Assembly: GCA_022710715.1 (NCBI GenBank)
Contig: JAKLGJ010000001.1
Coordinates: 426,041-490,040 of the forward strand
Direction: 5' to 3'
Length of the DNA stretch: 64,000 nt
Source: Candidatus Omnitrophota bacterium
Lineage (GTDB): Bacteria; Omnitrophota; Gorgyraeia; Gygaellales; Profunditerraquicolaceae
The notes below the pieces were generated by a model. That model was not told the DNA's origin. It was given only the letters and a program-made list of their open reading frames with translations, and ran no database searches. This document shows, in pieces, positions 2,470 to 48,821 of this stretch (positions are counted from its first letter, which is position 1; the number at the start of each line of letters is the position of its first letter). Both the position numbers and the translations under genes were made by a program.

Positions 2470-5400
2470 ATGGAGAGATCGATAGTTCGCAGAATAATTG
2501 CTTTAGTCATAATTTCCTGCTTTGTTTTCGAGCAGAGCGGGTTCGCTCAGGTGGCGCCGCAGCTGCCCGTGCCCACGTATTTGCAGGGGCTGCAGCCGCT
2601 GGATAAGTTTCGCCCCATGCATTTGCGCTCCATGGCTTTTGATCCGGCTCAAACCCGTTTTTCTCTTCTTCTGGACCAGGGCGACAATCTGCGTCCCAGC
2701 ACCCGGGCAGTTACCGATGCTACCGCTAAAGTCATGGAATATTTTCAGATCGGCTTGCGTCTTCCCAACAACAGCTTCTGGGTAAATTTACGGCCGGACA
2801 GTTCGCAGCGGGTCATTGATCCCGATCTGGAACGTACGGACCTGGGTAAGGTGTTTCTGGAGGCTGATCTTCAGCTCAAAAAAGATCTGGCGCAATTCAC
2901 TGCTCCGGCTACTCCGGCAGGCAAAATGTACTGGAAAAAGCTCTACGCCAGAGCCGAGAGCCTTTTCGGCCAGGAAGACGTGACTATTCCTACCATGACC
3001 CGCCCCTGGATCATTCCAGGCGAGATCATTATCAAGCAGCAGGGAACCAGCGCGTACGTGTACAAGGCGACCATGCGGGTGATGCTGGAGCAGGATTATA
3101 TCAGTAGCCGGGATGGCGCGCAGACACCTGCGGCGCTGGCTACGGCCGCGGCAATCGCCGATCCCCGGATGAAAGAATTAAACGCTTATTCCACGCAGTT
3201 GATCAAGGATTTGGTCCTGCCGCGTTTGAATCGCGAAGTCAACGCTTCCCGGCGCTATGCGGGATTACGCCAGGCGTTTTATTCCCTGGTTCTGGCGCAG
3301 TGGTTCAAAACCAGGATCGCCAGCGCGCAAGTCGGCGAGAGCGAAAAAACCGAGCACGGATATGCGCAGATGAAGCGTTTGATCGACAGCCGCGATCTGA
3401 CCGGTTTGATCTCGAAACAGCCGTGCCCGACGCAGGACTATTACCGGCAGTACCGGAAATCGTTCGAGCAGGGCGAATATAAGAAAGAGGAAGCTTTATC
3501 CACTCCGCATGGGATGGTGATCCGGCGGTATACTTCCGGCGGAATTTTCGGGGCTGTGCAGCCGCAAACCGCGGGAGTCGCAGCCGAGACCGACGTTCTG
3601 GCAGTGGACCCGGTGACCAACGGTATCGGTTATGATCCGGCAACCGGAGCGATAGATATTAATCCTGAAGGTTTGATCAACGGACAGCAGGCGGAACCGC
3701 AGCTGAAAGCGCAGGGACCGGAAACGCCGGACGGAGGTTCGCTTTCAAGGGAACTCGATTCCATACTGAACAAAGATTATTTGAAACGATCAAAGATTTT
3801 AATGCTGCGCAAGGTGCATAAATTATCGGATCAGAAGATTGTTGAGTTCGTGCAGTCGTATTACCGTCTGCGTTTAGGCCAGACTATCGAGCGGCTCAAA
3901 CCCTCTGACGCGCGCACGATCGCGGATGTGCTGGTGCGCCAGGGGTTCAGCCAGTATAAAGCGCAGCTGCGTTCTTTGCAGAAGGAAGTTCGCGCGCTTG
4001 AGCGCCCTTCGGCAGCGAGCAGGAGAGTCGGCGCGCCGGGCAATGGAGCCAGAGCGGCGCGAGTGCTGATGGCGATGGGGCTGGTGGCTACGGCAGCCGG
4101 CGTGGGTTCGATAGTGAACCAGGAATTAGCCGACGGGCAGGGTATTTCTGACCTGGCATTTATCCAGGATCAGTTGATCACCTTGATGCCGGATGCGGCC
4201 CAAGATCTGCTGACGTATTCTCCTTTTGCCGCGTCCGCGGCGATGATCGACACGTCGACGGTTCCGTACGGCGGGCCGTCCGTAGGCTGGGCGTCCGAAG
4301 TGGAGCCGGTGACCATGCCTGCGGATGTTAACGATAAATACCTTAATGTCGTGGTTAAAGCCAATGGTCAAGGAAAGGTGCGGTTTCAGCTTCTGGATAA
4401 AAATATCGTGGACGGAACGGAAGCCGGGCTTTCCGATTACATCGACGTGCAGGAAGGCGAAAATAAGATTGCCATCCCGCTGTCCGTCTATCAGGGGAAG
4501 GGCGTCAATACGGCCGAAGCGCGCGAAATCGTGATGCATGACGGCAAGAACTTCTGGAATCAGCGGGATGTCAATGATCCCGGTTTTTCCGCGCAATTCG
4601 ATTCCTATGAATTCTCTCCCGATCCCATCGTGCAGGAATCCTTCATCGACGCGATCATAAAGTTCTTTTCGAATTTGTTCAGCTTCAAGATTTCTCTGTT
4701 CGCGGTTTCCGCGGCCAATCTTGATACGTCCGTGGGGCTGGATGGGGCATGGGATGTGCCGATCAGCTCCGGAAAAGGCTGGGGCGGGGCTGAAAGCGGG
4801 GTAAGCCGGACCGGCGATGCAGTGACCGTAGAGGACTCGCGTTCGCAAAACTGGGCTTCATTCGCGGTGGATCTGGGCGGAGTGGATGTGAGCAGCAAAG
4901 AAGTGCTGCGTTTGAAGATTACCGGTACCGGCGGAGAGAAAATCGCGATCCGGGTTATCGACGGGGCTAAAGATTATACCTCCAGCCGCGGGGCGCAGCG
5001 GATCACTCTCAAGCCCGGCGAGAATGAGTATACCATCGATCTGCAAAATTTCGGGTCCGATCTGACCAAAGTGGAGCAAGTGGCGTTCAATTTGGGAAAA
5101 GAAGGCTGGGGCGGTCAGTTGAATGAGAAGGCGGTGAAAATCACCATCAGCAGCGTCAAGTTCGATATGAAAGTCGCGCAGGTAGTAGCGGCGCAGCCCC
5201 AGAAAACCCGGGCGCCGGCAGCGCCTACCGCGGCAGTGACCGCAGCGCCCACGCCTGCGCCTGCAGCGGCGTACGAAAAATACAGCGCGGAGGCGGCAGC
5301 CGCGTTTTTCGATTCCACGGTGGAAGCGAAGACCGGATTGCCGGCAAGCTTCCAGCCTACAGCTGAAGATCTTGCGGCTATCCATGATCCTGATGAAAAG

Positions 5401-8079
5401 CGGGTGCTTGAAGACGGGCTGGTGATCTACGACGGAGCCGTCATTGCGGAGCTCATGGTGTTGCTCGGCAATATGGGCATGGCGGATAAGTTCATCACGG
5501 TACTCTGGGAAAATTCCCTGCCCGGGTATCAGAGGATTGTCGGCGGATACAACGCAGGTTCCGCCGGACAGGAGTTTGTGTATGACCCGGCGGATCCGGC
5601 TTCGGTCAGCTCGTATGAAAAAGGACTGCGGGGCTGGCGCTTCAAGATCATCGATCAGTCCGGGATGTGGGAGAAAAACGGGGTCAAATGGCAGCAATGG
5701 CAGCCGATAGCCGGGGAGAACGCCTGGGTGACTATGGCGGCGATGCAGGTGTACCACAAGAAATACGGCGCTACCGTTAAGGCTGACGCTACGGAATTGA
5801 TGCTGGCCAAGGAACTCGCGCGGGTCGCCATCAAGATGCAGGCTGGCAACGGCGGGATCCGCATGGCGCCGATCGGGACCTGGAGCAGCCAGGAAGAGCC
5901 GGGAACCCCGGTTTCCGAGCAGGTGTGGTTATACAACGAGATCTCCACAGAAAACTGTATTTCCTGGTACGGCGCGTTCCGGATGCTCTTTCAGGTGACC
6001 GGAGATCAGCAGTACAAAACCGCGATGGATAAGCTCGAAGGATATTTTAAATCGGTTTACGATCCGGCGACCGGGACAGTGGCCCAGGGCATGCATTATA
6101 ACGGCAACAGCTGGGAGAAAAACGCGCCTTTCGCTACGGATTGCCAGACCTGGCTTATCGCTTCTCTGGGCGTTTCCAAGGTCGACGCGATGTTCGGCGA
6201 GGGCGCTTCGTACAAAATGTGGCAGAAAACCCGGGAGACCGCGGGCGTATTCGATCAGAGAGGCAATCTGCTGGGCGTTGATTTTACCGATTTCCGGCAA
6301 GTGGGCCGGCCGGCGATGGTGAGCGTCGAATGGACTGCCGGCGCGATTACCGCAGCCAGGGAAATGAAAGCCGCGTATGGCGCCGCGTATCCTGACCGGG
6401 CGCAGTCATTGCAGAAAGATATCGATAGCATGCGCGCGCATGTAGAGACGCTTAAGATCGTGCGCAACGGGGTTACCGCGTATGCGTATTCCTCGGCCTA
6501 CGGCGAAACCGGTCACGGCTGGCGCGCGGCAGGAAGAATGCCCAGCTCCGCTTCCACCGGATGGATGGCCATGGTGGACGCGAACGGGGGCGAGGGGTTC
6601 GATCCGTTCTTCCTGGGCGGCAAAAGCGAGGCTGCCGGCGTACCGGCAACTCCCGGCGCTACGACCGCTCCCGGCGCGCAACCGACCAAGACTCCGGGAT
6701 TCAGCGCTGTTGCGGCAATTGCCGCGGCGCTGGGAGTGAGCAGCCTGTTCGCTGCATTTCGCAAGAAACAGGCCGCGAAGCTGGAAATCAAAAGCGAGGA
6801 TGACGGCAGTAATGACGGTGGCTTAAGCTCAACTGACAAACAGGCGATCAATGCTTTATACAAAAAAATGAAAATTACTTATTTGACTCAGAGGCTCGAT
6901 CCGGCTTATGAAAAAGGTTTGAGGATTTCTGCTATTGGAGAATTACATGAATTTGGCTATACCGGAGAGGCTTTAAGGCGGTTGTTGACCACCGAGCATG
7001 ATCGTGACGTGCTGTGGAATGTACTCGTTGCATTGGAAGACAGTGATGTGCAGGGGCAGGAGATAAACGCTGCGGCTGTCCGGTTGATACGAATGGATCG
7101 GTATCGCATGATCAGTGATGGAGCTGCAAGTTTCCTGTTGAGAACGACAAGCGGAGAATTGGTGCTCATTGACCTGATCGACGAACTGGATATACAGACA
7201 AGGGAGGTTCTGTTGGATTATTTGAGTCGAAATAAAAAAAGTTCAACGACTCTGTATAAGACTTTGAAGTTACGCATATATGAACCACTTCTAAAAGATA
7301 CGAAGAGGTCCGTAAAAAGACGGATCGAGGCGGTAAGAAAACTTTCCAATTTAGATTCTTCATTGTATCCGTTGTATTCGTTCAAGGAGATTATTCAGAA
7401 TCCGGATGAAGACCGGGATGTGATTATTGAAACAGCCAAATCTTTGCAAGGTCGCATTCCGGATCGGGAGTTATTCGTTCCTCTGCTGCGATTGATCCGG
7501 ACAGGGGACTCTAGGGTTGTTGAAAAAGCCGCCGCGCTATTGCTTCACTTAGGTGGAGGCATCAAGGTTCTGGAAGCGGAATTTGACCAGGGCAATCTGC
7601 CCGAGACGGCTCTGCGACCTTTGGTCGGCACCATCAAAACTTATTTTGGTGAGGATCTGGGTGACGGCGGCACTCTGGTGCAGAATCTCTTGAGCAGGAT
7701 GAAGCAGTTGATGCAACAGCAGGCAGCCGGAACGCCGGCAGCAGCGGATCCGGTGGGTGGTATCGATATGCGCATGATGCCCATGCAGCAGCCGGGCGTG
7801 AATCCGGCGATGGGCGCAGGCGCGGCCGCGGCCGCAGCGATCAATCCGGTGTCTTTGCGGGAGCTGGATGCGCAGTGGCAGGCGATCGTGGAGCAGGTAA
7901 ATCAGGGCGCGGTGCCCTGCAAACAATTGCAGGCGTATATGGCGGCCTGCGCGACTAATCCGCAAGCGCAGGATCAGCGTAAACAGGCCGAACAGTATCT
8001 GGCCTGGGTGCTGCGCCTGGAAGAAGACGCGGGTGTGAGCGTTTCCAGCGAGATGAAAGCAGCGTTCTGCGGCGCTTAA
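2470..8079 (+). CDS. Giant (1869 aa) multi-domain secreted membrane protein: signal peptide, about 1400-aa extracytoplasmic part, Pro/Ala-rich linker, one TM helix, about 440-aa C-terminal tail
   Basis: RBS AAAGGGGG precedes the ATG. The N-terminal signal peptide is IIALVIISCFVFEQSGFA. The only internal hydrophobic helix is FSAVAAIAAALGVSSLFAAF, near nt 6697-6765, followed by RKKQ. The C-terminal region is helical-repeat-like and Q/M/P/A-rich. The central region has motifs suggestive of an (alpha/alpha)6 glycosidase-like fold; this is an unverified inference. Confidence 0.75.
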   Translation: MERSIVRRIIALVIISCFVFEQSGFAQVAPQLPVPTYLQGLQPLDKFRPMHLRSMAFDPAQTRFSLLLDQGDNLRPSTRAVTDATAKVMEYFQIGLRLPNNSFWVNLRPDSSQRVIDPDLERTDLGKVFLEADLQLKKDLAQFTAPATPAGKMYWKKLYARAESLFGQEDVTIPTMTRPWIIPGEIIIKQQGTSAYVYKATMRVMLEQDYISSRDGAQTPAALATAAAIADPRMKELNAYSTQLIKDLVLPRLNREVNASRRYAGLRQAFYSLVLAQWFKTRIASAQVGESEKTEHGYAQMKRLIDSRDLTGLISKQPCPTQDYYRQYRKSFEQGEYKKEEALSTPHGMVIRRYTSGGIFGAVQPQTAGVAAETDVLAVDPVTNGIGYDPATGAIDINPEGLINGQQAEPQLKAQGPETPDGGSLSRELDSILNKDYLKRSKILMLRKVHKLSDQKIVEFVQSYYRLRLGQTIERLKPSDARTIADVLVRQGFSQYKAQLRSLQKEVRALERPSAASRRVGAPGNGARAARVLMAMGLVATAAGVGSIVNQELADGQGISDLAFIQDQLITLMPDAAQDLLTYSPFAASAAMIDTSTVPYGGPSVGWASEVEPVTMPADVNDKYLNVVVKANGQGKVRFQLLDKNIVDGTEAGLSDYIDVQEGENKIAIPLSVYQGKGVNTAEAREIVMHDGKNFWNQRDVNDPGFSAQFDSYEFSPDPIVQESFIDAIIKFFSNLFSFKISLFAVSAANLDTSVGLDGAWDVPISSGKGWGGAESGVSRTGDAVTVEDSRSQNWASFAVDLGGVDVSSKEVLRLKITGTGGEKIAIRVIDGAKDYTSSRGAQRITLKPGENEYTIDLQNFGSDLTKVEQVAFNLGKEGWGGQLNEKAVKITISSVKFDMKVAQVVAAQPQKTRAPAAPTAAVTAAPTPAPAAAYEKYSAEAAAAFFDSTVEAKTGLPASFQPTAEDLAAIHDPDEKRVLEDGLVIYDGAVIAELMVLLGNMGMADKFITVLWENSLPGYQRIVGGYNAGSAGQEFVYDPADPASVSSYEKGLRGWRFKIIDQSGMWEKNGVKWQQWQPIAGENAWVTMAAMQVYHKKYGATVKADATELMLAKELARVAIKMQAGNGGIRMAPIGTWSSQEEPGTPVSEQVWLYNEISTENCISWYGAFRMLFQVTGDQQYKTAMDKLEGYFKSVYDPATGTVAQGMHYNGNSWEKNAPFATDCQTWLIASLGVSKVDAMFGEGASYKMWQKTRETAGVFDQRGNLLGVDFTDFRQVGRPAMVSVEWTAGAITAAREMKAAYGAAYPDRAQSLQKDIDSMRAHVETLKIVRNGVTAYAYSSAYGETGHGWRAAGRMPSSASTGWMAMVDANGGEGFDPFFLGGKSEAAGVPATPGATTAPGAQPTKTPGFSAVAAIAAALGVSSLFAAFRKKQAAKLEIKSEDDGSNDGGLSSTDKQAINALYKKMKITYLTQRLDPAYEKGLRISAIGELHEFGYTGEALRRLLTTEHDRDVLWNVLVALEDSDVQGQEINAAAVRLIRMDRYRMISDGAASFLLRTTSGELVLIDLIDELDIQTREVLLDYLSRNKKSSTTLYKTLKLRIYEPLLKDTKRSVKRRIEAVRKLSNLDSSLYPLYSFKEIIQNPDEDRDVIIETAKSLQGRIPDRELFVPLLRLIRTGDSRVVEKAAALLLHLGGGIKVLEAEFDQGNLPETALRPLVGTIKTYFGEDLGDGGTLVQNLLSRMKQLMQQQAAGTPAAADPVGGIDMRMMPMQQPGVNPAMGAGAAAAAAINPVSLRELDAQWQAIVEQVNQGAVPCKQLQAYMAACATNPQAQDQRKQAEQYLAWVLRLEEDAGVSVSSEMKAAFCGA

Positions 8080-13325: not shown

Positions 13326-15011
13326 ATGAATCTGGGACAGATACTCACACAGCGGTTCAATCTTACCGCAGACCAGTGGCAGGCATGCCTCGACGAACAT
13401 AAACGCAGCCAGGCGTCGCTGGTGCGATTGCTCATCAATAAGAATCTTGTCCCCGAACAGAACCTGCTGCAGGTCCTTTCCGAGCATCTGAACATTCCCC
13501 TGGTCCGGATTACCCCGGAAGACATCGATACGTCCTTGATCAAAGACATTCCCGCCAAGTTCGTGACCCATTATAATTTCATGCCGCTTAAAGCTGTCGG
13601 CGCCTCCGTGCGCATCGCCGTCAATGACCCGCTGGATGTGCTGGTTCTGGACGAGATCAGCCAGTTCCTTAAGCGTCCCGTCGCCGCGGTGCTGGCCAGC
13701 GAGAAAGATATTCTCGACGCGATCAAGAATTATTACGGCGTGGGCGCCGAAACGCTGGAAGCGATGGCCGGGGAAGCGGCCCAGCCGCAGGAACTGGAAT
13801 TCCTGACCGGCTCCGACAATGCGGATTTGAAGGATGAGGATATCGATCCTTCGGTGATCAAGTTCCTCAATCAGATCTTCCAGGAAGCCATCAAGCAGCG
13901 GGCGACCGACGTTCATTTTGAGCCGTTCGAGAACGATCTGCGTATTCGTTATCGTATCGACGGCATACTCTATGAAGTTCCTGTGCCTCCCACGATCAAG
14001 CGTTTCCAGTCGTCTATCGCTTCGCGTATCAAGGTTATGGCGAATCTCGATATCGCGGAGAAGCGCCGGCCGCAGGACGGCAGGGTGGACGTGCGGATGG
14101 AAGGGGAAGTCTACGATTTGAGAATTTCGATCATGCCCACGCCTTTTGGAGAGAGTATCGGGATCCGCGTGCTGCCGCGTTCCAGCCCGGTGATCGGCCT
14201 GGAAGGATTGGGGTTGGATAGCGACGGGCTGGTTTCGCTGGAGCGGATGATCGCCAAACCCTACGGTATTATCCTGGTCACCGGCCCTACCGGCAGCGGT
14301 AAAACCACCACTCTGTACGCCAGTCTGAACAAGATTAATTCCACCGAGCGCAAGATCCTGACTATCGAAGATCCCATCGAATATCAGTTGGCCGGGATCA
14401 CCCAGATGCAGGTAGAGCCGAAGATCAGTTTCACGTTCGCCAACGCTTTGCGTTCGATGCTGCGCCATGACCCGGACGTGATGATGGTCGGAGAGATCCG
14501 TGATTCCGAGACCGCGGAGCTGGCGGTGCGCACGGCCTTGACCGGGCATCTGGTGTTTTCCACCCTGCATACCAATGATGCCGCCGGCGGGATTACCCGT
14601 TTGCTGGATATGGGTATAGATCCGTTCCTGGTCTCCTCGTCGGTTATTCTGATCATCGCGCAGAGGCTGGTGCGGATGATCTGTCCGCAGTGCCGTCAGA
14701 AAATCCCGGATTCCGAATCGCTGGTACGGCAGTTCTTTCCGGATAAACCGCTGACTGCTGCGTTGTATCAGGGCAAAGGTTGCGAAAGCTGCCGTTTCAC
14801 CGGCTATAAAGGCCGCACGGCTATTTTCGAGATGATAGTGATCAGCGATGAGATCCGGGAACTCGTTTTGAAGAAACAGCCTACCCATATCATCAAACAA
14901 AAAGCGGTCAGTCAGGGGATGAGGGCGCTCCGGGATGCGGGATGGGAGAAGATCATCCGGGGCGTGACTACCATCGACGAGGTGGTCCGGGTGACCCAGG
15001 AAGAAGCGTAA
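13326..15011 (+). CDS. gspE: Type II secretion / type IV pilus assembly ATPase GspE
   Basis: Walker A GPTGSGKTT, the Asp box, a His box, and a tetracysteine motif CPQC...CESC. Length is 561 aa. Confidence 0.9.
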   Translation: MNLGQILTQRFNLTADQWQACLDEHKRSQASLVRLLINKNLVPEQNLLQVLSEHLNIPLVRITPEDIDTSLIKDIPAKFVTHYNFMPLKAVGASVRIAVNDPLDVLVLDEISQFLKRPVAAVLASEKDILDAIKNYYGVGAETLEAMAGEAAQPQELEFLTGSDNADLKDEDIDPSVIKFLNQIFQEAIKQRATDVHFEPFENDLRIRYRIDGILYEVPVPPTIKRFQSSIASRIKVMANLDIAEKRRPQDGRVDVRMEGEVYDLRISIMPTPFGESIGIRVLPRSSPVIGLEGLGLDSDGLVSLERMIAKPYGIILVTGPTGSGKTTTLYASLNKINSTERKILTIEDPIEYQLAGITQMQVEPKISFTFANALRSMLRHDPDVMMVGEIRDSETAELAVRTALTGHLVFSTLHTNDAAGGITRLLDMGIDPFLVSSSVILIIAQRLVRMICPQCRQKIPDSESLVRQFFPDKPLTAALYQGKGCESCRFTGYKGRTAIFEMIVISDEIRELVLKKQPTHIIKQKAVSQGMRALRDAGWEKIIRGVTTIDEVVRVTQEEA

Positions 15012-29288: not shown

Positions 29289-29466
29289 CTCGTGCTAACC
29301 TCGTGTGGGCTAAGTATATAGCTTAAGTATAGCACAAATTATTTATTTATCCAGCGTTTAGGGATTGAAAGCCTTTGCAGCATTGCCCGTCGCAGGTCTT
29401 GAAATGAGCTTTTTTATGAGGTATCTTTAAGCGGATCAAGTATCTGCGATCAAAGGGAGGGATTTG

Positions 29467-31470: not shown

Positions 31471-31499
31471 TTGAAAAGTATTGATTCATGGTGTATATT
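31471..31499 (+). promoter_or_regulatory. Promoter TTGAAA-N17-TATATT
   Basis: It places the TSS about 7 nt downstream of the -10 end, just upstream of the conserved leader element that begins at 31510. Confidence 0.35.
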
Positions 31500-31507
31500 T
31501 TTAATGC

Positions 31508-31630
31508 ACATTTTCCGATAAAGCCTGCCCGGGGGGGTGGGAAAGCCACGGTCGAAAAATAAGTTTGTTTGCTTTTTGCTGTTTTCGAACCTGGTTGCCG
31601 AAGAAAAGCGCGCAACCGGGTTTTTTTATT
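31508..31630 (+). promoter_or_regulatory. Conserved structured 5' leader (candidate riboswitch/cis-regulatory RNA), copy 1, with terminator-type expression platform
   Basis: TTTCCGATAAAGCCyGCC..GGG..GGGAAAGCCACGGTCGAAAA and CGAACCTGGTTGCCGAA are conserved with 32647-32735. A terminator hairpin follows. Confidence 0.45.
31588..31628 (+). terminator. Leader-internal intrinsic terminator (AACCUGGUUGC / GCAACCGGGUU plus U7)
   Basis: An 11-bp stem (one G-U pair), a 13-nt loop, then TTTTTTT. It lies 35 nt upstream of the CDS start, which is an attenuator arrangement. Confidence 0.5.
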
Positions 31631-31662
31631 TGCATCGAAGGGAAAATGTAAGGGGGTGGGGG

Positions 31663-32607
31663 ATGCAAAGATGCGCTCGCGCAATCGTTGTTTTAGCCTG
31701 TCTGTCGTTGCTGGCCGGAGTTGATGCGTACGCCGGCGGGATAAGCAAAGGCGATACAGTATTTAAAGACGGGGCAAGGATCGGAATAATTACCGCAGTA
31801 AACGGCAAAAGCGTTACTTTTGTCAAGCCCAACGGACTTTCCACTTCAACCACCACGGATAATTTATCGATCTTAGGTTTGACCATACGTAAGGCAATGG
31901 CGGAGGCCAAGAAAATTTCGACGCCTGCTTCCAGGGTTGAAGATAAGTTGTATTGCACGTCGGTTTCCGTTGTCAAGCAACCTTCAGGCAAGCCGGACGC
32001 CGTGAATGAAATAACCAAAGGCGGCAAGGCAAACAAAGCAATCGCTGTGCGGGTTGTTGGCGGCGATTCCGGGTCGACGATCAGAAGCGCCGGCGTTGAT
32101 ATAGAGATCAAGCCTTCGGAGCATGGCAATTACGACGTAAAGGCGTGTGAGTCCTTTAAGCAGGGTGTGATCGACAATTACGGCTTCACGGAGCAGGCCA
32201 AAGCGTATTTGCGCACTGTCTCGCTGGTTGTGGCGCGCAGCACCTGGAATTCATCGATTGACGGCGGAGCGCACTGGCATGTCGACAGGCAGGAAATCAA
32301 TTCTTCAGGCTGGGGCGAAGAAGGCGCGGTGCACGAAATGGCCCACGCCTGGTATGATCAGGATAAAAGCGGCAGGCCCTGGACCGATAGCGAGTTGCTC
32401 CGGGCCACGCAGCGGCTCGCGGCTATGGATCCCGCGCGGAACGCCCGTTTTGCCGACGCCATAAAAGAGGCGCGCCAGTATGTCGCTGATGCCAGGCCGG
32501 CGTTCGAAGTATTTGCCAGTTTCGCCAGTTTCGCGAAAGCCAAGAACGGCGGAAATGCGATGCCCGAGTTCATGAATAAATTTTACGCGTCGCTTTTTGC
32601 GTCTTGA
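31663..32607 (+). CDS. Secreted putative zinc metallopeptidase (HExxH motif HEMAHAWYD)
   Basis: Start moved to MQRCARAIVVLACLSLLAGVDAYA (signal peptide) after RBS AAGGGGG. The HEMAH motif is near the C-terminus. Family unknown. Confidence 0.6.
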   Translation: MQRCARAIVVLACLSLLAGVDAYAGGISKGDTVFKDGARIGIITAVNGKSVTFVKPNGLSTSTTTDNLSILGLTIRKAMAEAKKISTPASRVEDKLYCTSVSVVKQPSGKPDAVNEITKGGKANKAIAVRVVGGDSGSTIRSAGVDIEIKPSEHGNYDVKACESFKQGVIDNYGFTEQAKAYLRTVSLVVARSTWNSSIDGGAHWHVDRQEINSSGWGEEGAVHEMAHAWYDQDKSGRPWTDSELLRATQRLAAMDPARNARFADAIKEARQYVADARPAFEVFASFASFAKAKNGGNAMPEFMNKFYASLFAS

Positions 32608-32647
32608 AACCGTTTTTTGACAAGCGGTCGTTTTTAAGAATGCAATC

Positions 32648-32735
32648 TTTCCGATAAAGCCCGCCAAGGGGAGCGGGAAAGCCACGGTCGAAAAGAGCAT
32701 TGGGTTTTTGTCACCTCGAACCTGGTTGCCGAAAA
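32648..32735 (+). promoter_or_regulatory. Conserved structured 5' leader, copy 2
   Basis: Aligns with 31510-31602. A possible promoter TTGACA-N18-TGCAAT at 32617-32646 precedes it. Confidence 0.45.
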
Positions 32736-32779
32736 AGATTGATGCAGGTAGTTTGTTTTTTGCAAAAAAAGGGGGGGGG

Positions 32780-33361
32780 ATGAGAATTTTAGCTATTGCT
32801 GTTTTGCTGGTTGCGGTGTGCGTGTCGCAGGCGTATTGCGCGGATAAAGTGACCACAGGGTGTTCCTATGAAGGCGCGACCATGGAAGTTGCGAACTCTA
32901 AATATTTCAAGCCTGTGAGCAAGATTGTGCAAACTGGCGGCACTGCGACTCAGCAAATGGAATATGTGGGGCCTGCAAATAAGTTTAAAGACATAGTAAG
33001 CGTGGGTGTTGGTATTAAGGGCGCAGCGGCTAAGAAGGATTCGGCGCCTACTTCTAAACTTGAGGGAAAGATATATTCGGCGTCGGTAGTTAGCACTGCC
33101 AAGAAAGTCGCGGCGCCTACTTCTAAAATCGAGGGCAAGTTGTATTCTGCATCGGCGTCGGTAGTTAGCACTGCCAAGAAAGTCGCGGCGCCTGCTTCTA
33201 AAATCGAGGGCAAGTCGTATTATTATGCAGGGGTTCCTGCTGGACTCAAGGACAAGTTGGTTGCTTCATCTCTGACGGGTCCCGCTTCTTTTTCGCGCGT
33301 TTATTGGGTAAACGGAATAAAAGTTGAAACAGGGTGGAGTCGTTTGCCGCAGAAAAAATAA
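32780..33361 (+). CDS. Secreted tandem-repeat protein (hypothetical)
   Basis: The start MRILAIAVLLVAVCVSQAYCA follows a G-rich RBS. It contains about 2.5 copies of a 23-25-aa repeat, AAPTSK(L/I)EGK(I/L)YSASVVSTAKKV. Confidence 0.6.
   Translation: MRILAIAVLLVAVCVSQAYCADKVTTGCSYEGATMEVANSKYFKPVSKIVQTGGTATQQMEYVGPANKFKDIVSVGVGIKGAAAKKDSAPTSKLEGKIYSASVVSTAKKVAAPTSKIEGKLYSASASVVSTAKKVAAPASKIEGKSYYYAGVPAGLKDKLVASSLTGPASFSRVYWVNGIKVETGWSRLPQKK
33044..33228 (+). repeat. Intragenic tandem repeat (units of 69 and 75 nt plus a partial third)
   Basis: Near-identical nucleotide units GCGCCTACTTCTAAA..GTAGTTAGCACTGCCAAGAAAGTCGCG. Confidence 0.6.
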
Positions 33362-40678: not shown

Positions 40679-42688
40679 TCAGAAACTGTATTGCATCTTG
40701 ATGAAGACACTGCGCTCCGGCGATGGATAATAAACCTTTTTGCCGGTCCCGGTGTTACAGGTGGCATATTCCGAGTAGCGCTTATTCAGCAGATTGTTGA
40801 TCCCCAGCAGCGCCGTCACATCCTTGAAGGTATAGGCAATATTGGTATCCAGGGTAACATAGCCGTTCAGACGCGATAACACGTTAGCCTGGTCATTGAT
40901 GAAATACCTCTCCCCTATGTAATTTCCGGACAGATTCAACTCCATCTGGCGCATCAAACGGTAGCGCAACCCCAGGCTGGCTTTGTGGCGCGGCACCAGC
41001 GGGATGGTTTTATTATTGTACACCCCTCCGTCAAAAACTGCCCGGGTGTAGGTATAGCTGCCGAAAAGCGTCGCCTGCGCCGCGAGACGGGCTTCGAATC
41101 CCGACTCAACTCCTTCATGCCGGGTTTTGTCGTAGTTTTTATTGGAAAAACTGGAATAGTCATAATAAAGTTCGTCTTTGAGGTTCATCCTGAATACGGT
41201 CAGGTCGGCTTTGATCCGGGGGCTGATATGGTGCTTGAACCCGATTTCATAATGCCTGCCGGTTTGCGGCTTGAGCGAAGTATCCACGCTGTGCGCGGGC
41301 CAGGTGATGGAATATTCTTCCGGGTTGGGAAATCGGAAACTGCGGCTTACGTTGATAAAAGCGCTGGAGTCCGGCGAATATTTATAGACCAGACCGGAAT
41401 TGAAGGCTTTTTTGCCGGGAGTGACCGCGGTGTCCAGCGGATCTGTGCCGCCGGCGTTGTTGTAATCGAACTCATAGCGCGTTTTCTCGTAGCGGTATCC
41501 TCCCAGGAGAAACATGTTGCGGGTAACGGTCAACTCATCCTGCAGATAATACCCTGCGGAGATTTTGTTGATGTCGGAGAAGCTTTGGATCACGTCGGCG
41601 TAATCGTAATTGTTCGACGCGTAGTCGCTGCGGTAGTAATCCAGGCCGCAGATCAGGGTGTTTTCTTTTCGAGAGAACGGTTTTTTGATGATCAGCTTCG
41701 GGGTCAGGCCGGTAGTAGTGATGCGGTTTTTATAGACCGGGCTGCCGAATCCGCCGTAGAATACCCGCCAATAGGTGTCCATATCTCTTCTGCGTAAAGA
41801 CGCGCCCACGTCGAACCGGGCCCAGTCGGTGAAGTCATAGGCGCCTCCCCCGTCGATAAAGGCGTCGGTTTCTTTGGCGAAATCATCGCCGTATTTAGAG
41901 GCGCGCCGGGATAAGGTTTCCAGTTCGGCGTCGGAAAGTTCACCCGGCAGGCCGTAGTCTGATTTGTGTATCCCGTTGCTCATGCGCAGATTCAATGCGG
42001 GGCTGACTGCCCAGGTAAAGGCGGAACTGAAATCGCCGGCCCGCGCATGACTGTTTTCGCGGTAACCGTGAGTGGATTCGCGGCTGGCGGAGAAAAAATA
42101 GGTGGCGCCGTTGTGCGCGCCGTCCAGGGAGAGTCTTTGTTTGTTGAAATCGTAGCTGCCGATCTGGGTATCGATGTGCCATGTGGGTTTGCCGACGCCG
42201 GTGCGGGTGATAATATTGATCACGCCTCCCGTGGCATTGTCTCCGTAGAGAACGCTGCCGCTCCCTCCCCGCACCACCTCGATTTTTTCGACGCGGTCCA
42301 GCGGGATCTGCGTCCAGTCAACGCCGCTTAAGTCGATTTCGTTGACTCGGCGGCCGTCGACCAGCACCAGGGTATTTTCCGGGCTGCGCTCTCCGAATCC
42401 GCGCATATCCACGGAAACTTTGGTGCCGTTACCGTACCAGTCGCGCACTGCCAGTCCGGTCTCGCTTTTAAGGATGCCGGGTATGCTTTGAGCGTTGGAT
42501 TGTTCGATCTGCTGCCGGTTGATGATGGTGATCCCGGCGGCGGTATTGAGAATTTCTTCTTCGTAACGGTAGGGCGTGACTACGATCTTGTTCAGGCCGA
42601 TATCGTCATCAGCGCCTGTTGAAGCGAACAGCGAGGTGCAACTGGACAGCAGACATGCGATTCCCAGAAAAACGCGTTGTGTACCCAT
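40679..42688 (-). CDS. TonB-dependent outer-membrane receptor (likely BtuB-like corrinoid receptor given the upstream riboswitch)
   Basis: Signal peptide, a plug domain with a TonB-box-like segment, a 22-strand beta-barrel length of 669 aa, and a C-terminal aromatic residue (..MQYSF). Confidence 0.85.
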   Translation of the reverse strand: MGTQRVFLGIACLLSSCTSLFASTGADDDIGLNKIVVTPYRYEEEILNTAAGITIINRQQIEQSNAQSIPGILKSETGLAVRDWYGNGTKVSVDMRGFGERSPENTLVLVDGRRVNEIDLSGVDWTQIPLDRVEKIEVVRGGSGSVLYGDNATGGVINIITRTGVGKPTWHIDTQIGSYDFNKQRLSLDGAHNGATYFFSASRESTHGYRENSHARAGDFSSAFTWAVSPALNLRMSNGIHKSDYGLPGELSDAELETLSRRASKYGDDFAKETDAFIDGGGAYDFTDWARFDVGASLRRRDMDTYWRVFYGGFGSPVYKNRITTTGLTPKLIIKKPFSRKENTLICGLDYYRSDYASNNYDYADVIQSFSDINKISAGYYLQDELTVTRNMFLLGGYRYEKTRYEFDYNNAGGTDPLDTAVTPGKKAFNSGLVYKYSPDSSAFINVSRSFRFPNPEEYSITWPAHSVDTSLKPQTGRHYEIGFKHHISPRIKADLTVFRMNLKDELYYDYSSFSNKNYDKTRHEGVESGFEARLAAQATLFGSYTYTRAVFDGGVYNNKTIPLVPRHKASLGLRYRLMRQMELNLSGNYIGERYFINDQANVLSRLNGYVTLDTNIAYTFKDVTALLGINNLLNKRYSEYATCNTGTGKKVYYPSPERSVFIKMQYSF

Positions 42689-42919
42689 TTTCTCCTCCCC
42701 AGAGAATACTTACCGGGATCAGGCAATAGACCGGGCTAAAAGGCGGCATGCTATAGCCTCTTTTACCGTTGCTGGGCAGCGCCTGGAATCAAACCAGGAC
42801 TTCCTTTGCTTGTCCGGTGAGTGAACAAAAAACCCTTGACCTCTTCCATATGAGAAGTCAAGGGTAACCCCTATTTTACCCTTGGTCCGGCGCCAGGTGT
42901 GGTGTTCGATCGTGTACGC

Positions 42920-43122
42920 GTAAAGGCAGGTATTCTGACTTCCCTGCGGCTTGAACAGAACCTTCCCGGTTACCCAGTGGTTGTGTCCGTCCTGGTGTTT
43001 ACAGACGTGAGTTCAGCCTCTGACTCTGAAAGAAGCGATTCCAGAGTGCAGGGTTACAGCAGCGGGACTGTGGCCGAATTCCCCTCGTGCTCAAGGAGTT
43101 CACGGCCTTCCCTTGCCTACAA
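42920..43122 (-). promoter_or_regulatory. Cobalamin (AdoCbl) riboswitch, minus strand
   Basis: On the minus strand: AGGGAAGGCCGUGAACUCC...CCCGCUGCUGUAACC...CCACUGGGUAACCGGGAAGG...AAGUCAGAAUACCUGCC. These match GGGAA, GUGaAAnuCC, CCCGCnnCUGUAA, the B12 box and AGUCAG-A-ACCUGCC. It lies about 230 nt upstream of the TBDR start. Confidence 0.8.
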
Positions 43123-43125
43123 CGT

Positions 43126-43632
43126 TCATTTCTTCGAAAGAACGGAAGCTAATTTGCCGTCGCGGGTCAATTTTGCGATCAGCTCGTATGTGCCGAATAA
43201 AGCGAAACTATATATCACGGTCGCCGCGGTAAAATCGCGCAGGAACGGCAGCGCCATGACGTAGCAGTCGACCAGACCCTGCGCAGTACGGGGATACCAT
43301 CCCATCAGCCATACGCCGAAGTTCGTGATGACGTAGAACAACAGCGATGAGGCTAAAGACAAAGCGGCAATGCGGCCGGCTGAAGGTTTTTGTTTCATGC
43401 GGTAACCCAAAAGCGCGATGAGCGCGAAGCTGCCCCAGGTAAACAGTACGGTGTTGTGCAGGCCGAGTATGACGTCGCTTGCGATCATCAACAGTAAAGG
43501 CACGAAGAACGATTGTTTCTTATTTAAATACGCTCCGCCGAATAAAGCGATGGCGGCGACAGGAGCGAAATTCGGTGCGTGGGGAACAAAGCGTAAAAGT
43601 ACGCCGATAAGAATCAAGCTCAATGCTAACAT
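43126..43632 (-). CDS. Small polytopic membrane protein, possibly a vitamin/corrinoid transporter S-component-like
   Basis: 168 aa with 5-6 TM helices, between cobO and the B12 riboswitch. No diagnostic motif, so the call rests on context. Confidence 0.35.
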   Translation of the reverse strand: MLALSLILIGVLLRFVPHAPNFAPVAAIALFGGAYLNKKQSFFVPLLLMIASDVILGLHNTVLFTWGSFALIALLGYRMKQKPSAGRIAALSLASSLLFYVITNFGVWLMGWYPRTAQGLVDCYVMALPFLRDFTAATVIYSFALFGTYELIAKLTRDGKLASVLSKK

Positions 43633-47657: not shown

Positions 47658-48821
47658 CTACAATTTCCCTTCGCGGTACAATTCCACCATGGCTACGGCA
47701 ACATCCGGATGGAACTGCTTGCCGGCTAGTTTCTCGATCTCGTCCATCGCTTTTTCCTGGGGCAGCCCTTTACGATAGGGCCGGTCCGAGACCATGGCGT
47801 CGTAGGAATCGGCTACCGCGATTATCGCGGCGATCAGCGGGATCTGGGCGCCTTTGAGGCCTTCGGGATACCCGGTTCCGTCGTAGCGTTCGTGATGGTA
47901 TTTTACCCCTTTAACGCAGTTTTCCAGTTCCTGGATCGATTCCAGGATCTTTTCGCCGATGACCGTGTGCTCTTTCATCGTATTCCATTCTTCCGGGCTC
48001 AACGGTCCCTGTTTGTTCAGAATACTCTCCGGAATGCCGATCTTGCCGATATCGTGCAGCACGCTGGCGATTTCCAGGTCTTCGGAAAAAGCGTCGTCTA
48101 TCAGGTCGGGGTATTTCTGACTGAGTTTATCGCTGACTTTCTGGCTGACTTCGCGCACCCGGTCGGTATGGCCGCCGGTATAATTGTCTTTGGCGTCGAT
48201 CGCCGCAGCCAGGGCTTTGGTGATGTTCTTGAACAGGGCTTTTCTCTTGTCCAGTTCGTCGGTAAGATCTTTGAAAAGCTTGGCGTTGCGGATGGCCATG
48301 CCGACATCCGAAGCCAGCGCCACGAAGAATTGCATTTCGTCTGCTTCGAATTCGGTTCCGTCCTTCTTGGAGCCTAAGAGCAGGATGCCCAGCAGGTCAT
48401 GCTGGAAATAGCACGGCACGCAGGCAACCGCATCGAATATCTCCATCTGATAGAGTGCGCCGCGCAGCAGGTCGCTGTTCTCATTCTTCACCAGGATATC
48501 CAGGATCTTCTTGGCTTTAGGATAAACGATAGTGTTGTCGCTTGAGAAAAGGGTGGCTTTTTCCTCGCTGAATATCCTGATCAGGGCATTATCATTATCC
48601 ATCCGGGTGAAGCCTTCCGGAACTTTCAATCCCAGCGGGCCGCGGGATACTTTCATGATATAGGAATCGGCGATGTGGTTGTGCAGGAGGATATTGGCGT
48701 GGCTGACTTTGACCTTCTGGACGAGCATGCGCACGATCATCTTGATCAGGGTGTCAGGCTCATGCACCAGGATCATCGTCTTGGAGGCTTTTTCGAGTTC
48801 TTTCTTGTAATCTATGGACAT
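47658..48821 (-). CDS. GAF-domain HD-GYP phosphodiesterase (c-di-GMP hydrolase family)
   Basis: HDIGKIGIP and HHERYDGTGYP motifs. Confidence 0.75.
   Translation of the reverse strand: MSIDYKKELEKASKTMILVHEPDTLIKMIVRMLVQKVKVSHANILLHNHIADSYIMKVSRGPLGLKVPEGFTRMDNDNALIRIFSEEKATLFSSDNTIVYPKAKKILDILVKNENSDLLRGALYQMEIFDAVACVPCYFQHDLLGILLLGSKKDGTEFEADEMQFFVALASDVGMAIRNAKLFKDLTDELDKRKALFKNITKALAAAIDAKDNYTGGHTDRVREVSQKVSDKLSQKYPDLIDDAFSEDLEIASVLHDIGKIGIPESILNKQGPLSPEEWNTMKEHTVIGEKILESIQELENCVKGVKYHHERYDGTGYPEGLKGAQIPLIAAIIAVADSYDAMVSDRPYRKGLPQEKAMDEIEKLAGKQFHPDVAVAMVELYREGKL

Follow-up and report, generated by a model that had tools for sequence, protein, structure and literature searches.

Two secreted-protein leaders of Candidatus Omnitrophota belong to a shortened, divergent form of the GEMM-I (cyclic-di-GMP) riboswitch group

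Why do two neighboring genes for secreted proteins begin behind leaders that are, in part, the same? The question arises in a 64,000-nucleotide stretch of a Candidatus Omnitrophota genome (hereafter the window, in whose numbering all positions are given unless another locus is named), where the two genes are as follows.

31663..32607, + strand: gene 1, presumed regulated, a 314-aa HExxH (HEMAH) protein with a signal-peptide-like N-terminus
32780..33361, + strand: gene 2, presumed regulated, a 193-aa repeat protein with a signal-peptide-like N-terminus

The original prediction read these leaders as a riboswitch that acts through a terminator, with a possible kinship to GEMM-I, a class that it could not confirm by eye. 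Matches to the Rfam model RF03167, relatives in other genomes, the fold, covariation and the competition between aptamer and terminator in the first leader (copy 1) all support this prediction, and the class can now be named as the GEMM-I clan. The two leaders are divergent members of the GEMM-I (cyclic-di-GMP) riboswitch group, in a shortened form of Omnitrophota with a truncated P2 helix that falls below the Rfam thresholds, and they most likely turn on the secreted-protein genes that follow them.

The shared core and its fold

The common core of the two leaders is real: GGGAAAGCCACGGTCGAAAA is found by exact matching at 31539 and 32675 and TCGAACCTGGTTGCCGAA at 31585 and 32716, and none of 100 dinucleotide-preserving shuffles contained two matches to either pattern. 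Pairwise alignment gives 84% identity over 31508-31558 and 100% over 31585-31602 of the aptamer core, whereas distal P3 is 27% identical, the platform downstream of the aptamer 45% and the region upstream of it 44%. This difference between core and variable parts indicates that the duplication is old and that only a defined core has been kept. A search with the covariance model R1 (see below), its filters off, found no third copy in the window; the region upstream of the secreted-protein gene at 29464 (576 aa) is likewise without one.

That the similarity reflects nothing more than a recent segmental duplication free of structural constraint had been named beforehand as an explanation that would undo the prediction. 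We regard this reading, whether the duplicated unit is a promoter with its leader or the conserved sequence a DNA-level operator, as hardly credible. The bases near the promoter that both copies also have in common in the alignment of the upstream regions (CTTGAAA and AATGCA) would suit such an origin, but the contrast between core and flanks argues for age, the differences between the copies in P1 and P2 preserve pairing, and the element stands upstream of homologous genes elsewhere as well as at many other Omnitrophota loci. The core/flank contrast and the orthologous leaders contradict it directly.

The individual folds, RNAalifold and covariation agree on a junction of three helices in which P1 closes P2 and P3. 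The centroid fold of the copy 1 aptamer segment is this three-way junction, as is the fold of the copy 2 aptamer part taken alone, while the single-sequence folding z-scores of the aptamers (-0.29 and +0.56) are unremarkable. The anatomy of both copies is listed here with the scores of RF03167 and of R1, a covariance model built from ten distinct short-P2 sequences from outside the window, whose scores are partly circular because these training sequences were fished with a window-derived pattern. The equivalents of the Vc2 nucleotides G20, A47 and C92 were read off covariance-model alignments, and the assignment of A47 presumes a fully paired P2 register.

31508..31609, + strand: copy 1 aptamer; RF03167 over its full length, 18.2 bits; R1 49.7 bits, E = 1.5e-11
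31511-31517 with 31599-31607, + strand: P1 of copy 1, with an AA bulge
31518-31523, + strand: J1/2 of copy 1, AUAAAG, with G31523 as the G20 equivalent
31524-31541, + strand: P2 of copy 1, CCUGCCC-GGGG-GGGUGGG
31542-31543, + strand: J2/3 of copy 1, A31542 (A47 equivalent) and A31543
31544-31596, + strand: P3 of copy 1
31597-31598, + strand: J3/1 of copy 1, G31597 and C31598 (C92 equivalent)
32644..32740, + strand: copy 2 aptamer; RF03167 17.4 bits; R1 51.2 bits, E = 5.5e-12
32644-32653 with 32730-32740, + strand: P1 of copy 2
32654-32659, + strand: J1/2 of copy 2, with G32659 as the G20 equivalent
32660-32677, + strand: P2 of copy 2, CCCGC...GCGGG, followed by A32678 as the A47 equivalent
32680-32727, + strand: P3 of copy 2, followed by C32729 as the C92 equivalent

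RNAalifold recovers all three helices, P1, P2 and P3, from the ten sequences on which R1 is built. In an alignment of 40 distinct family members, standard pairs fill 94.6% of the cells, as against 25-57% when the partners are slid, and double-sided changes occur in 18 of the 27 pairs; these alignments were fitted by a covariance model and lean to its structure. When only the two window copies and the elements at the two loci with distant HExxH homologues (L131 and L135, see below) are considered, 89% of the cells are paired, with changes on both sides in 11 pairs. The P2 stems of these four illustrate the point, reading CCUGCCC/GGGUGGG, CCCGC/GCGGG, CCCGUU/AACGGG and CCCCU/AGGGG. Covariation in related leaders, which the original prediction had made one of its touchstones, therefore backs P1, P2 and the distal part of P3.

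The loop of P2 is GGGG in copy 1 and CAAGGGGA in copy 2, and other short-P2 relatives carry UCAA, UUAA, AUGC, UCUA or UUG, so that the loop is not conserved in the family. A GGGG run does occur in the P2 loop of all three elements of the window lineage (31531-31534, 32668-32671 and about 3391-3394 of L131), within loops reading GGGG, AAGGGGA and GGGG; a partner sequence for it was not identified.

Placement within the GEMM-I clan

At gathering score, Rfam gives no match at the leader locus. In E-value mode, the scan that had been proposed as a check returns RF03167, a model of the GEMM-I clan CL00126, for both copies and over its full length (1-80 of 80), at sub-threshold scores corresponding to E = 0.26 and 0.44 for copies 1 and 2, respectively, the gathering threshold being 59. 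Matches to dinG and ASpks at the same locus in this mode were set aside as chance.

A degenerate core pattern, applied to one genome per species, matches more than 118 loci. Thermodesulfobacteriota account for most of those listed, and Planctomycetes, Omnitrophota and other phyla for the remainder; the usual form of these loci is CGAUAAAG-CC-AAA-CC[stem-GNRA-stem]GG-GAC-GG-AA-AGCCACGGG...AGCCGGGUUGCCGAAG. Among the 18 loci tested with Rfam, this form is called as RF03167 (60-72 bits) or RF01051 (45-54 bits). A minority of the listed loci have instead a short, continuous P2 like that of the window copies; one of them, L095, barely passes RF01051 (36.9 bits), the other short-P2 loci fail, and the element at L131 is not detected by Rfam at all. 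In the genome collection, every short-P2 element among the matches listed comes from an Omnitrophota MAG, and a metagenome scan limited to short P2 added 12 loci. None of the pattern-scan matches listed is a close relative of the window lineage, which is marked by ACGGUCGA...CCUGG. What emerges is a graded series that runs from Rfam-recognized GEMM-I elements via L095 to the window copies.

When the entire window is searched with R1, again without filters, only the two copies are recovered, the next match reaching 10 bits. In a less circular comparison, R1 places them in the same range as the Rfam-called long-P2 elements at the relatives' loci, several of which were not selected by the pattern (L076 5535-5647, L093 4121-4286 and two in L119).

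A route independent of the pattern leads to the same family, as two distant homologues of the HExxH protein, 40% and 34% identical, were found through protein search alone. The locus of the first is syntenic (rpoN, a 674-aa gene, a 127-aa gene, HExxH, DUF134), and one element alone (L131 3368-3458, 51.5 bits), with the window-specific features of the lineage, stands at the head of its operon of three genes; the 674-aa first gene of this operon shows no homology to the 576-aa protein of the window. The second has an element directly upstream (L135 214-296, 61.8 bits). Three lines therefore place the copies in the family, namely the graded series, the R1 scores near 50 bits and the elements found beside HExxH homologues.

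Each of the short-P2 elements checked precedes a gene whose large product has a signal-peptide-like N-terminus, the ORFs ranging from 226 to more than 1500 aa, some ended by the contig edge. On two Omnitrophota contigs, four or five GEMM-I-type elements are clustered within 16 kb (JAKPTF010000035, 176-192 kb, L076/L082; JAGOOP010000003, 72-88 kb, L093/L095), and both clusters mix short-P2 and long-P2 forms.

How far do the window copies agree with characterized GEMM-I aptamers? The latter combine a tetraloop/receptor contact with a "universally conserved" interhelical C44-G83 pair (PMC4744006), and the G83C mutation abolishes detectable binding in Vc2 (PMC11705072). Vc2 contacts c-di-GMP through G20, A47 and C92 (PMC6140456, PMC4744006), of which G20 makes a Hoogsteen-edge contact to G-alpha and C92 is the Watson-Crick partner of G-beta (PMC6140456, PMC5888326, PMC4744006). 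Both window copies keep all three ligand-contact nucleotides, and all short-P2 members have G, AA and (G/A)CC at the corresponding columns. They also resemble Vc2 and RF01051 in the P1-P2-P3 three-way junction, in the AA bulge of P1, in the P3-base strands AAAGCC.CGG and CC.GGUU.CCGA, including the A48/U90 positions, in their location in 5' leaders of secreted- or surface-protein genes, and in a terminator that overlaps the aptamer 3' strand.

The differences are concentrated in P2 and its contacts. In the window, P2 is a continuous hairpin of 5-7 bp that lacks the AAA/GAC internal loop and hence offers no GAC bulge from which a C44-G83 pair could form. It is too short for a tetraloop arm, and the GNRA tetraloop and its P3 receptor are missing from the window copies as from the short-P2 subclass as a whole. 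The 3' bulge of P3 is A, not AG, and the closing pair of P2 is C-G, not G-C. J1/2 reads AUAAAG, the canonical sequence being CACAGG, and the P3 base of the window lineage is distinguished by an A-U pair together with a bulged C (ACGG/CCUGG). At the position of G83, the second nucleotide of the P3 bulge, G is found in 25 of 25 long-P2 versus 2 of 13 short-P2 elements, and both window copies have A; loss of the C44 bulge would seem to go together with a change of G83 to A in the short-P2 form. With fold and pocket retained and two defining features absent, the copies qualify as a GEMM-I variant and not as ordinary members.

The best Rfam match, RF03167 (c-di-GMP-I-GGC), shares with the window an A-rich J1/2 (AAAAAG) and the strands AGCCACGG / CCGGGUUGCCGAA; the elements that Rfam assigns to it are frequent in Thermodesulfobacteriota and also turn up on the Omnitrophota contigs that carry short-P2 elements. 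The window copies differ in having neither the AAA/GAC loop nor the GNRA loop of the model, and they reach 18 bits against its threshold. They also differ at position 47, where the model consensus (...GCGAAGCC), from which we infer the meaning of "GGC", has a G, whereas an A lies directly 3' of P2 in the window and in its short-P2 relatives. The cmscan register for the window would put a G at 47, but at the cost of three broken P2 pairs. In Vc2, the nucleotide at this position, A47, intercalates between the two ligand guanines. Many Thermodesulfobacteriota elements (L002, L003, L005 and other loci) score above the RF03167 threshold yet have A at 47, not G, so that the "GGC" label is not a reliable report of the binding-site variant.

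The GGC variant was reportedly defined by Weinberg in 2017 (PNAS), and GEMM-Ib by Kellenberger in 2015. GEMM-Ib, as exemplified by Gs1761, has the GEMM-I fold and serves as a transcriptional ON switch upstream of extracellular-protein genes; its P2 is presumably closed, as in the window copies, by a 5' C opposite a 3' G, after which comes AAAGCC. The sequences of Vc2 and Gs1761 served for the register checks. Unlike the window copies, GEMM-Ib keeps a long P2 with internal loop and tetraloop. A second difference lies in the pocket, since the cGAMP-selective GEMM-Ib of Geobacter carries A at position 20 (PMC6140456), where the window has G31523 and G32659.

Terminators and the proposed switch

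The elements that surround the two aptamers are listed below.

31471..31499, + strand: copy 1 putative sigma-70-like promoter, TTGAAA-17-TATATT, 10 of 12 consensus matches
about 31587..31627, + strand: copy 1 intrinsic terminator, 31590-31600 pairing with 31609-31620, then U7 at 31621-31627
32609..32637, + strand: terminator-like hairpin of 7 bp with a T-rich tail, after the HExxH stop codon and ahead of copy 2
32720..32766, + strand: copy 2 decayed counterpart of the terminator, a 5-bp ACCUG/CAGGU stem, a long loop, then GUUUGUUUUUU

It had been claimed that -10 elements place both transcription starts at the very beginning of the element. A consensus scan bears this out for copy 1, whose predicted start at about 31505-31508 coincides with the 5' end of P1, and finds no such element for copy 2. 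A comparable TTGAAA-17-TAAATT can be read upstream of the L131 element. Farther upstream of that promoter, L131 3186-3270 holds tandem direct repeats of ACCTACGAGGTAGT-like units of about 14-15 nt. A sigma-54 promoter, sought because rpoN adjoins, was rejected by eye, since both copies read GG-N14-GC and not GG-N10-GC.

The hairpin and U7 run proposed for copy 1 stand: the terminator has a computed energy of -20.4 kcal/mol (ViennaRNA) and ends 35 nt before ATG 31663. Its 5' strand comprises the 3' side of P3, J3/1 and the first nucleotides of the 3' side of P1, and in the minimum-energy fold of the whole copy 1 leader the terminator forms while P3 and P1 are given up. In L131 (-22.7 kcal/mol), L135 (-25.6 kcal/mol) and L076 (-19.2 kcal/mol), too, the terminator draws on the 3' side of P3, and the overlap of aptamer and terminator is also present in short-P2 sequences of the metagenome scan. 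Copy 1 and these three relatives have in common the arrangement of an ON-type platform, in which the 5' strand of the terminator is shared with the 3' strands of the aptamer.

Copy 2 appears to have largely lost this platform. The terminator strand GCAACCGGG of copy 1 has become GAUGCAGGU, leaving a 5-bp stem before a U-rich run; a terminator scan gives no match here, and the best 3' hairpin (-9.7 kcal/mol) is not terminator-like. The separate hairpin at 32609..32637 overlaps the relic of the duplicated promoter, as judged from the scan and from the upstream alignment.

Based on this architecture, we propose that transcription of copy 1 would begin near 31506. Binding of the ligand at the P1/P2/P3 junction, by G31523, A31542 and C31598, would let P3 and P1 hold 31590-31600, so that the terminator could not form and the HExxH gene would be transcribed. 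When the ligand is absent, 31590-31600 would pair with 31609-31620 and transcription would stop at the U7 run. The ON direction of copy 1 is what we infer from ligand stabilization of P1 and P3 blocking termination. Copy 2, in which the aptamer is kept and the terminator and -10 element have decayed, would probably act on read-through or weakly initiated transcripts.

Could such a leader be structured and yet bind no small molecule, as a protein-binding or RNA-stability element or a relic, with a terminator that is constitutive or answers to another factor? We consider this improbable. The scores under the Rfam thresholds, the lost tertiary contacts and the decay of the terminator and -10 element in copy 2 could be read in this way, but the pocket nucleotides are strictly kept while the helices around them covary, the overlap of aptamer and terminator is maintained in four lineages, and the core is identical in two old copies whose flanks have diverged.

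Ligand, regulated proteins and significance

Our main reading, which we hold to be likely, is that each leader contains a cyclic-dinucleotide aptamer of the GEMM-I fold with a truncated P2, most likely for c-di-GMP, and that copy 1 is an ON switch. The choice of c-di-GMP would follow from the G20, A47 and C92 equivalents together with two genes of the window. One (47658-48821, - strand) encodes an HD-GYP protein with the intact motif HHERYDGTGYP, HHERYDGTGYPEGL, which is likely a cyclic-dinucleotide phosphodiesterase, and the other (13326-15011, + strand) a T2SSE ATPase with an MshEN domain. Both fit a c-di-GMP-using organism; a GGDEF gene was not seen in the window. The presence of G20 argues for c-di-GMP over cGAMP, because GEMM-Ib has A20.

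Binding by the short-P2 scaffold is nevertheless not assured, given that both C44-G83 and the tetraloop/receptor contact are lost and that Vc2 G83C shows no detectable binding. Somewhat tentatively, we suggest that these RNAs may represent a natural minimal GEMM-I aptamer of Omnitrophota that works without either P2-P3 contact, an undescribed subclass for c-di-GMP or another ligand, which would govern a group of large secreted proteins in a phylum that has received little study. If c-di-GMP is bound, the affinity of the simplified scaffold would probably be lower.

It is also conceivable, though unlikely, that the short-P2 subclass retains the fold and the switching logic and responds to something else, such as 3'3'-cGAMP or another cyclic or linear dinucleotide, or to c-di-GMP only at much higher levels; it would then form a class of its own in functional terms. 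The short-P2 form lacks both tertiary contacts that Vc2 needs (PMC11705072), its J1/2 departs from the canonical one, and it coexists in the same Omnitrophota contigs with canonical-like long-P2 GEMM-I elements, a coexistence that resembles that of GEMM-I and GEMM-Ib in Geobacter (PMC6140456). A switch to another ligand would nonetheless have left G20, A47 and C92 all in place, the cGAMP-selective GEMM-Ib is distinguished by A20 (PMC6140456), and the HD-GYP and MshEN genes of the window are typical of c-di-GMP signaling. We therefore retain c-di-GMP as the most likely ligand.

The proteins that would be under this control have few recognizable relatives. Pfam assigns no family to three secreted proteins of the window, including the HExxH and repeat proteins, and a PDB sequence search with the secreted proteins gives only weak, implausible matches. 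The HExxH protein has four homologues, among which the motif HE.AHAWYD is invariant; an AlphaFold model on a 4-sequence alignment reaches a pLDDT of 52. The repeat protein consists in part of 2.5 tandem 25-residue repeats (KIEGKLYSASVVSTAKKVAAPTS), with a period of 75 nt at 33042-33221, and its sole relative in the database is itself. The earlier view that the two downstream proteins are unrelated holds only in part, as a 26-residue repeat-unit motif is common to both (E = 2e-5). Residues 79-104 of the HExxH protein (31897-31974) form one such repeat unit, MAEAKKISTPASRVEDKLYCTSVSVV compared with AKKVAAPTSKIEGKLYSASASVV of the repeat protein. In the alignment, the 72%-identical HExxH homologue P0002 has mostly a gap here, so that the region has the look of a repeat unit that was inserted, and it may serve as a substrate-like or pro-peptide segment.

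Both public gene calls read through the riboswitch. The HExxH call (P0001, 356 aa) starts at GTG 31537 inside the aptamer, and the repeat-protein call (P0005, 211 aa) at about 32726. Judging from the sequence, ATG 31663 and ATG 32780, each after the terminator region and preceded by a G-rich Shine-Dalgarno run, are more likely to be the truer starts.

Elsewhere in the window, a surface and secretion cluster of T2SS/T4P-like character (145-21175, + strand) comprises T2SSC, PilN, secretin, a PDZ protein, the T2SSE ATPase and T2SSF, and also exosortase EpsH with DUF3485, a sugar transferase, three PEP-CTERM proteins and a 1869-aa ORF (2470-8079) that has no Pfam match. A cobalamin riboswitch (42908-43135, - strand; RF00174, 47.2 bits, E = 1.1e-8) precedes the gene of a TonB-dependent receptor (40679-42688, - strand).

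Elements of the short-P2 form lie mostly below the Rfam thresholds, and gene callers start the downstream genes within the aptamers. If this form binds c-di-GMP, two long-range contacts that are essential in Vc2 would be dispensable in nature, which would bear on the pre-organization of the pocket and on the design of minimal biosensors. Candidatus Omnitrophota is a phylum known from metagenomes only. Our reading, if true, would provide a first handle on secreted proteins controlled by a cyclic dinucleotide in this phylum, and among the regulated products would be a putative metalloprotein (the HExxH protein) and a repeat protein, which have a repeat-unit motif in common.
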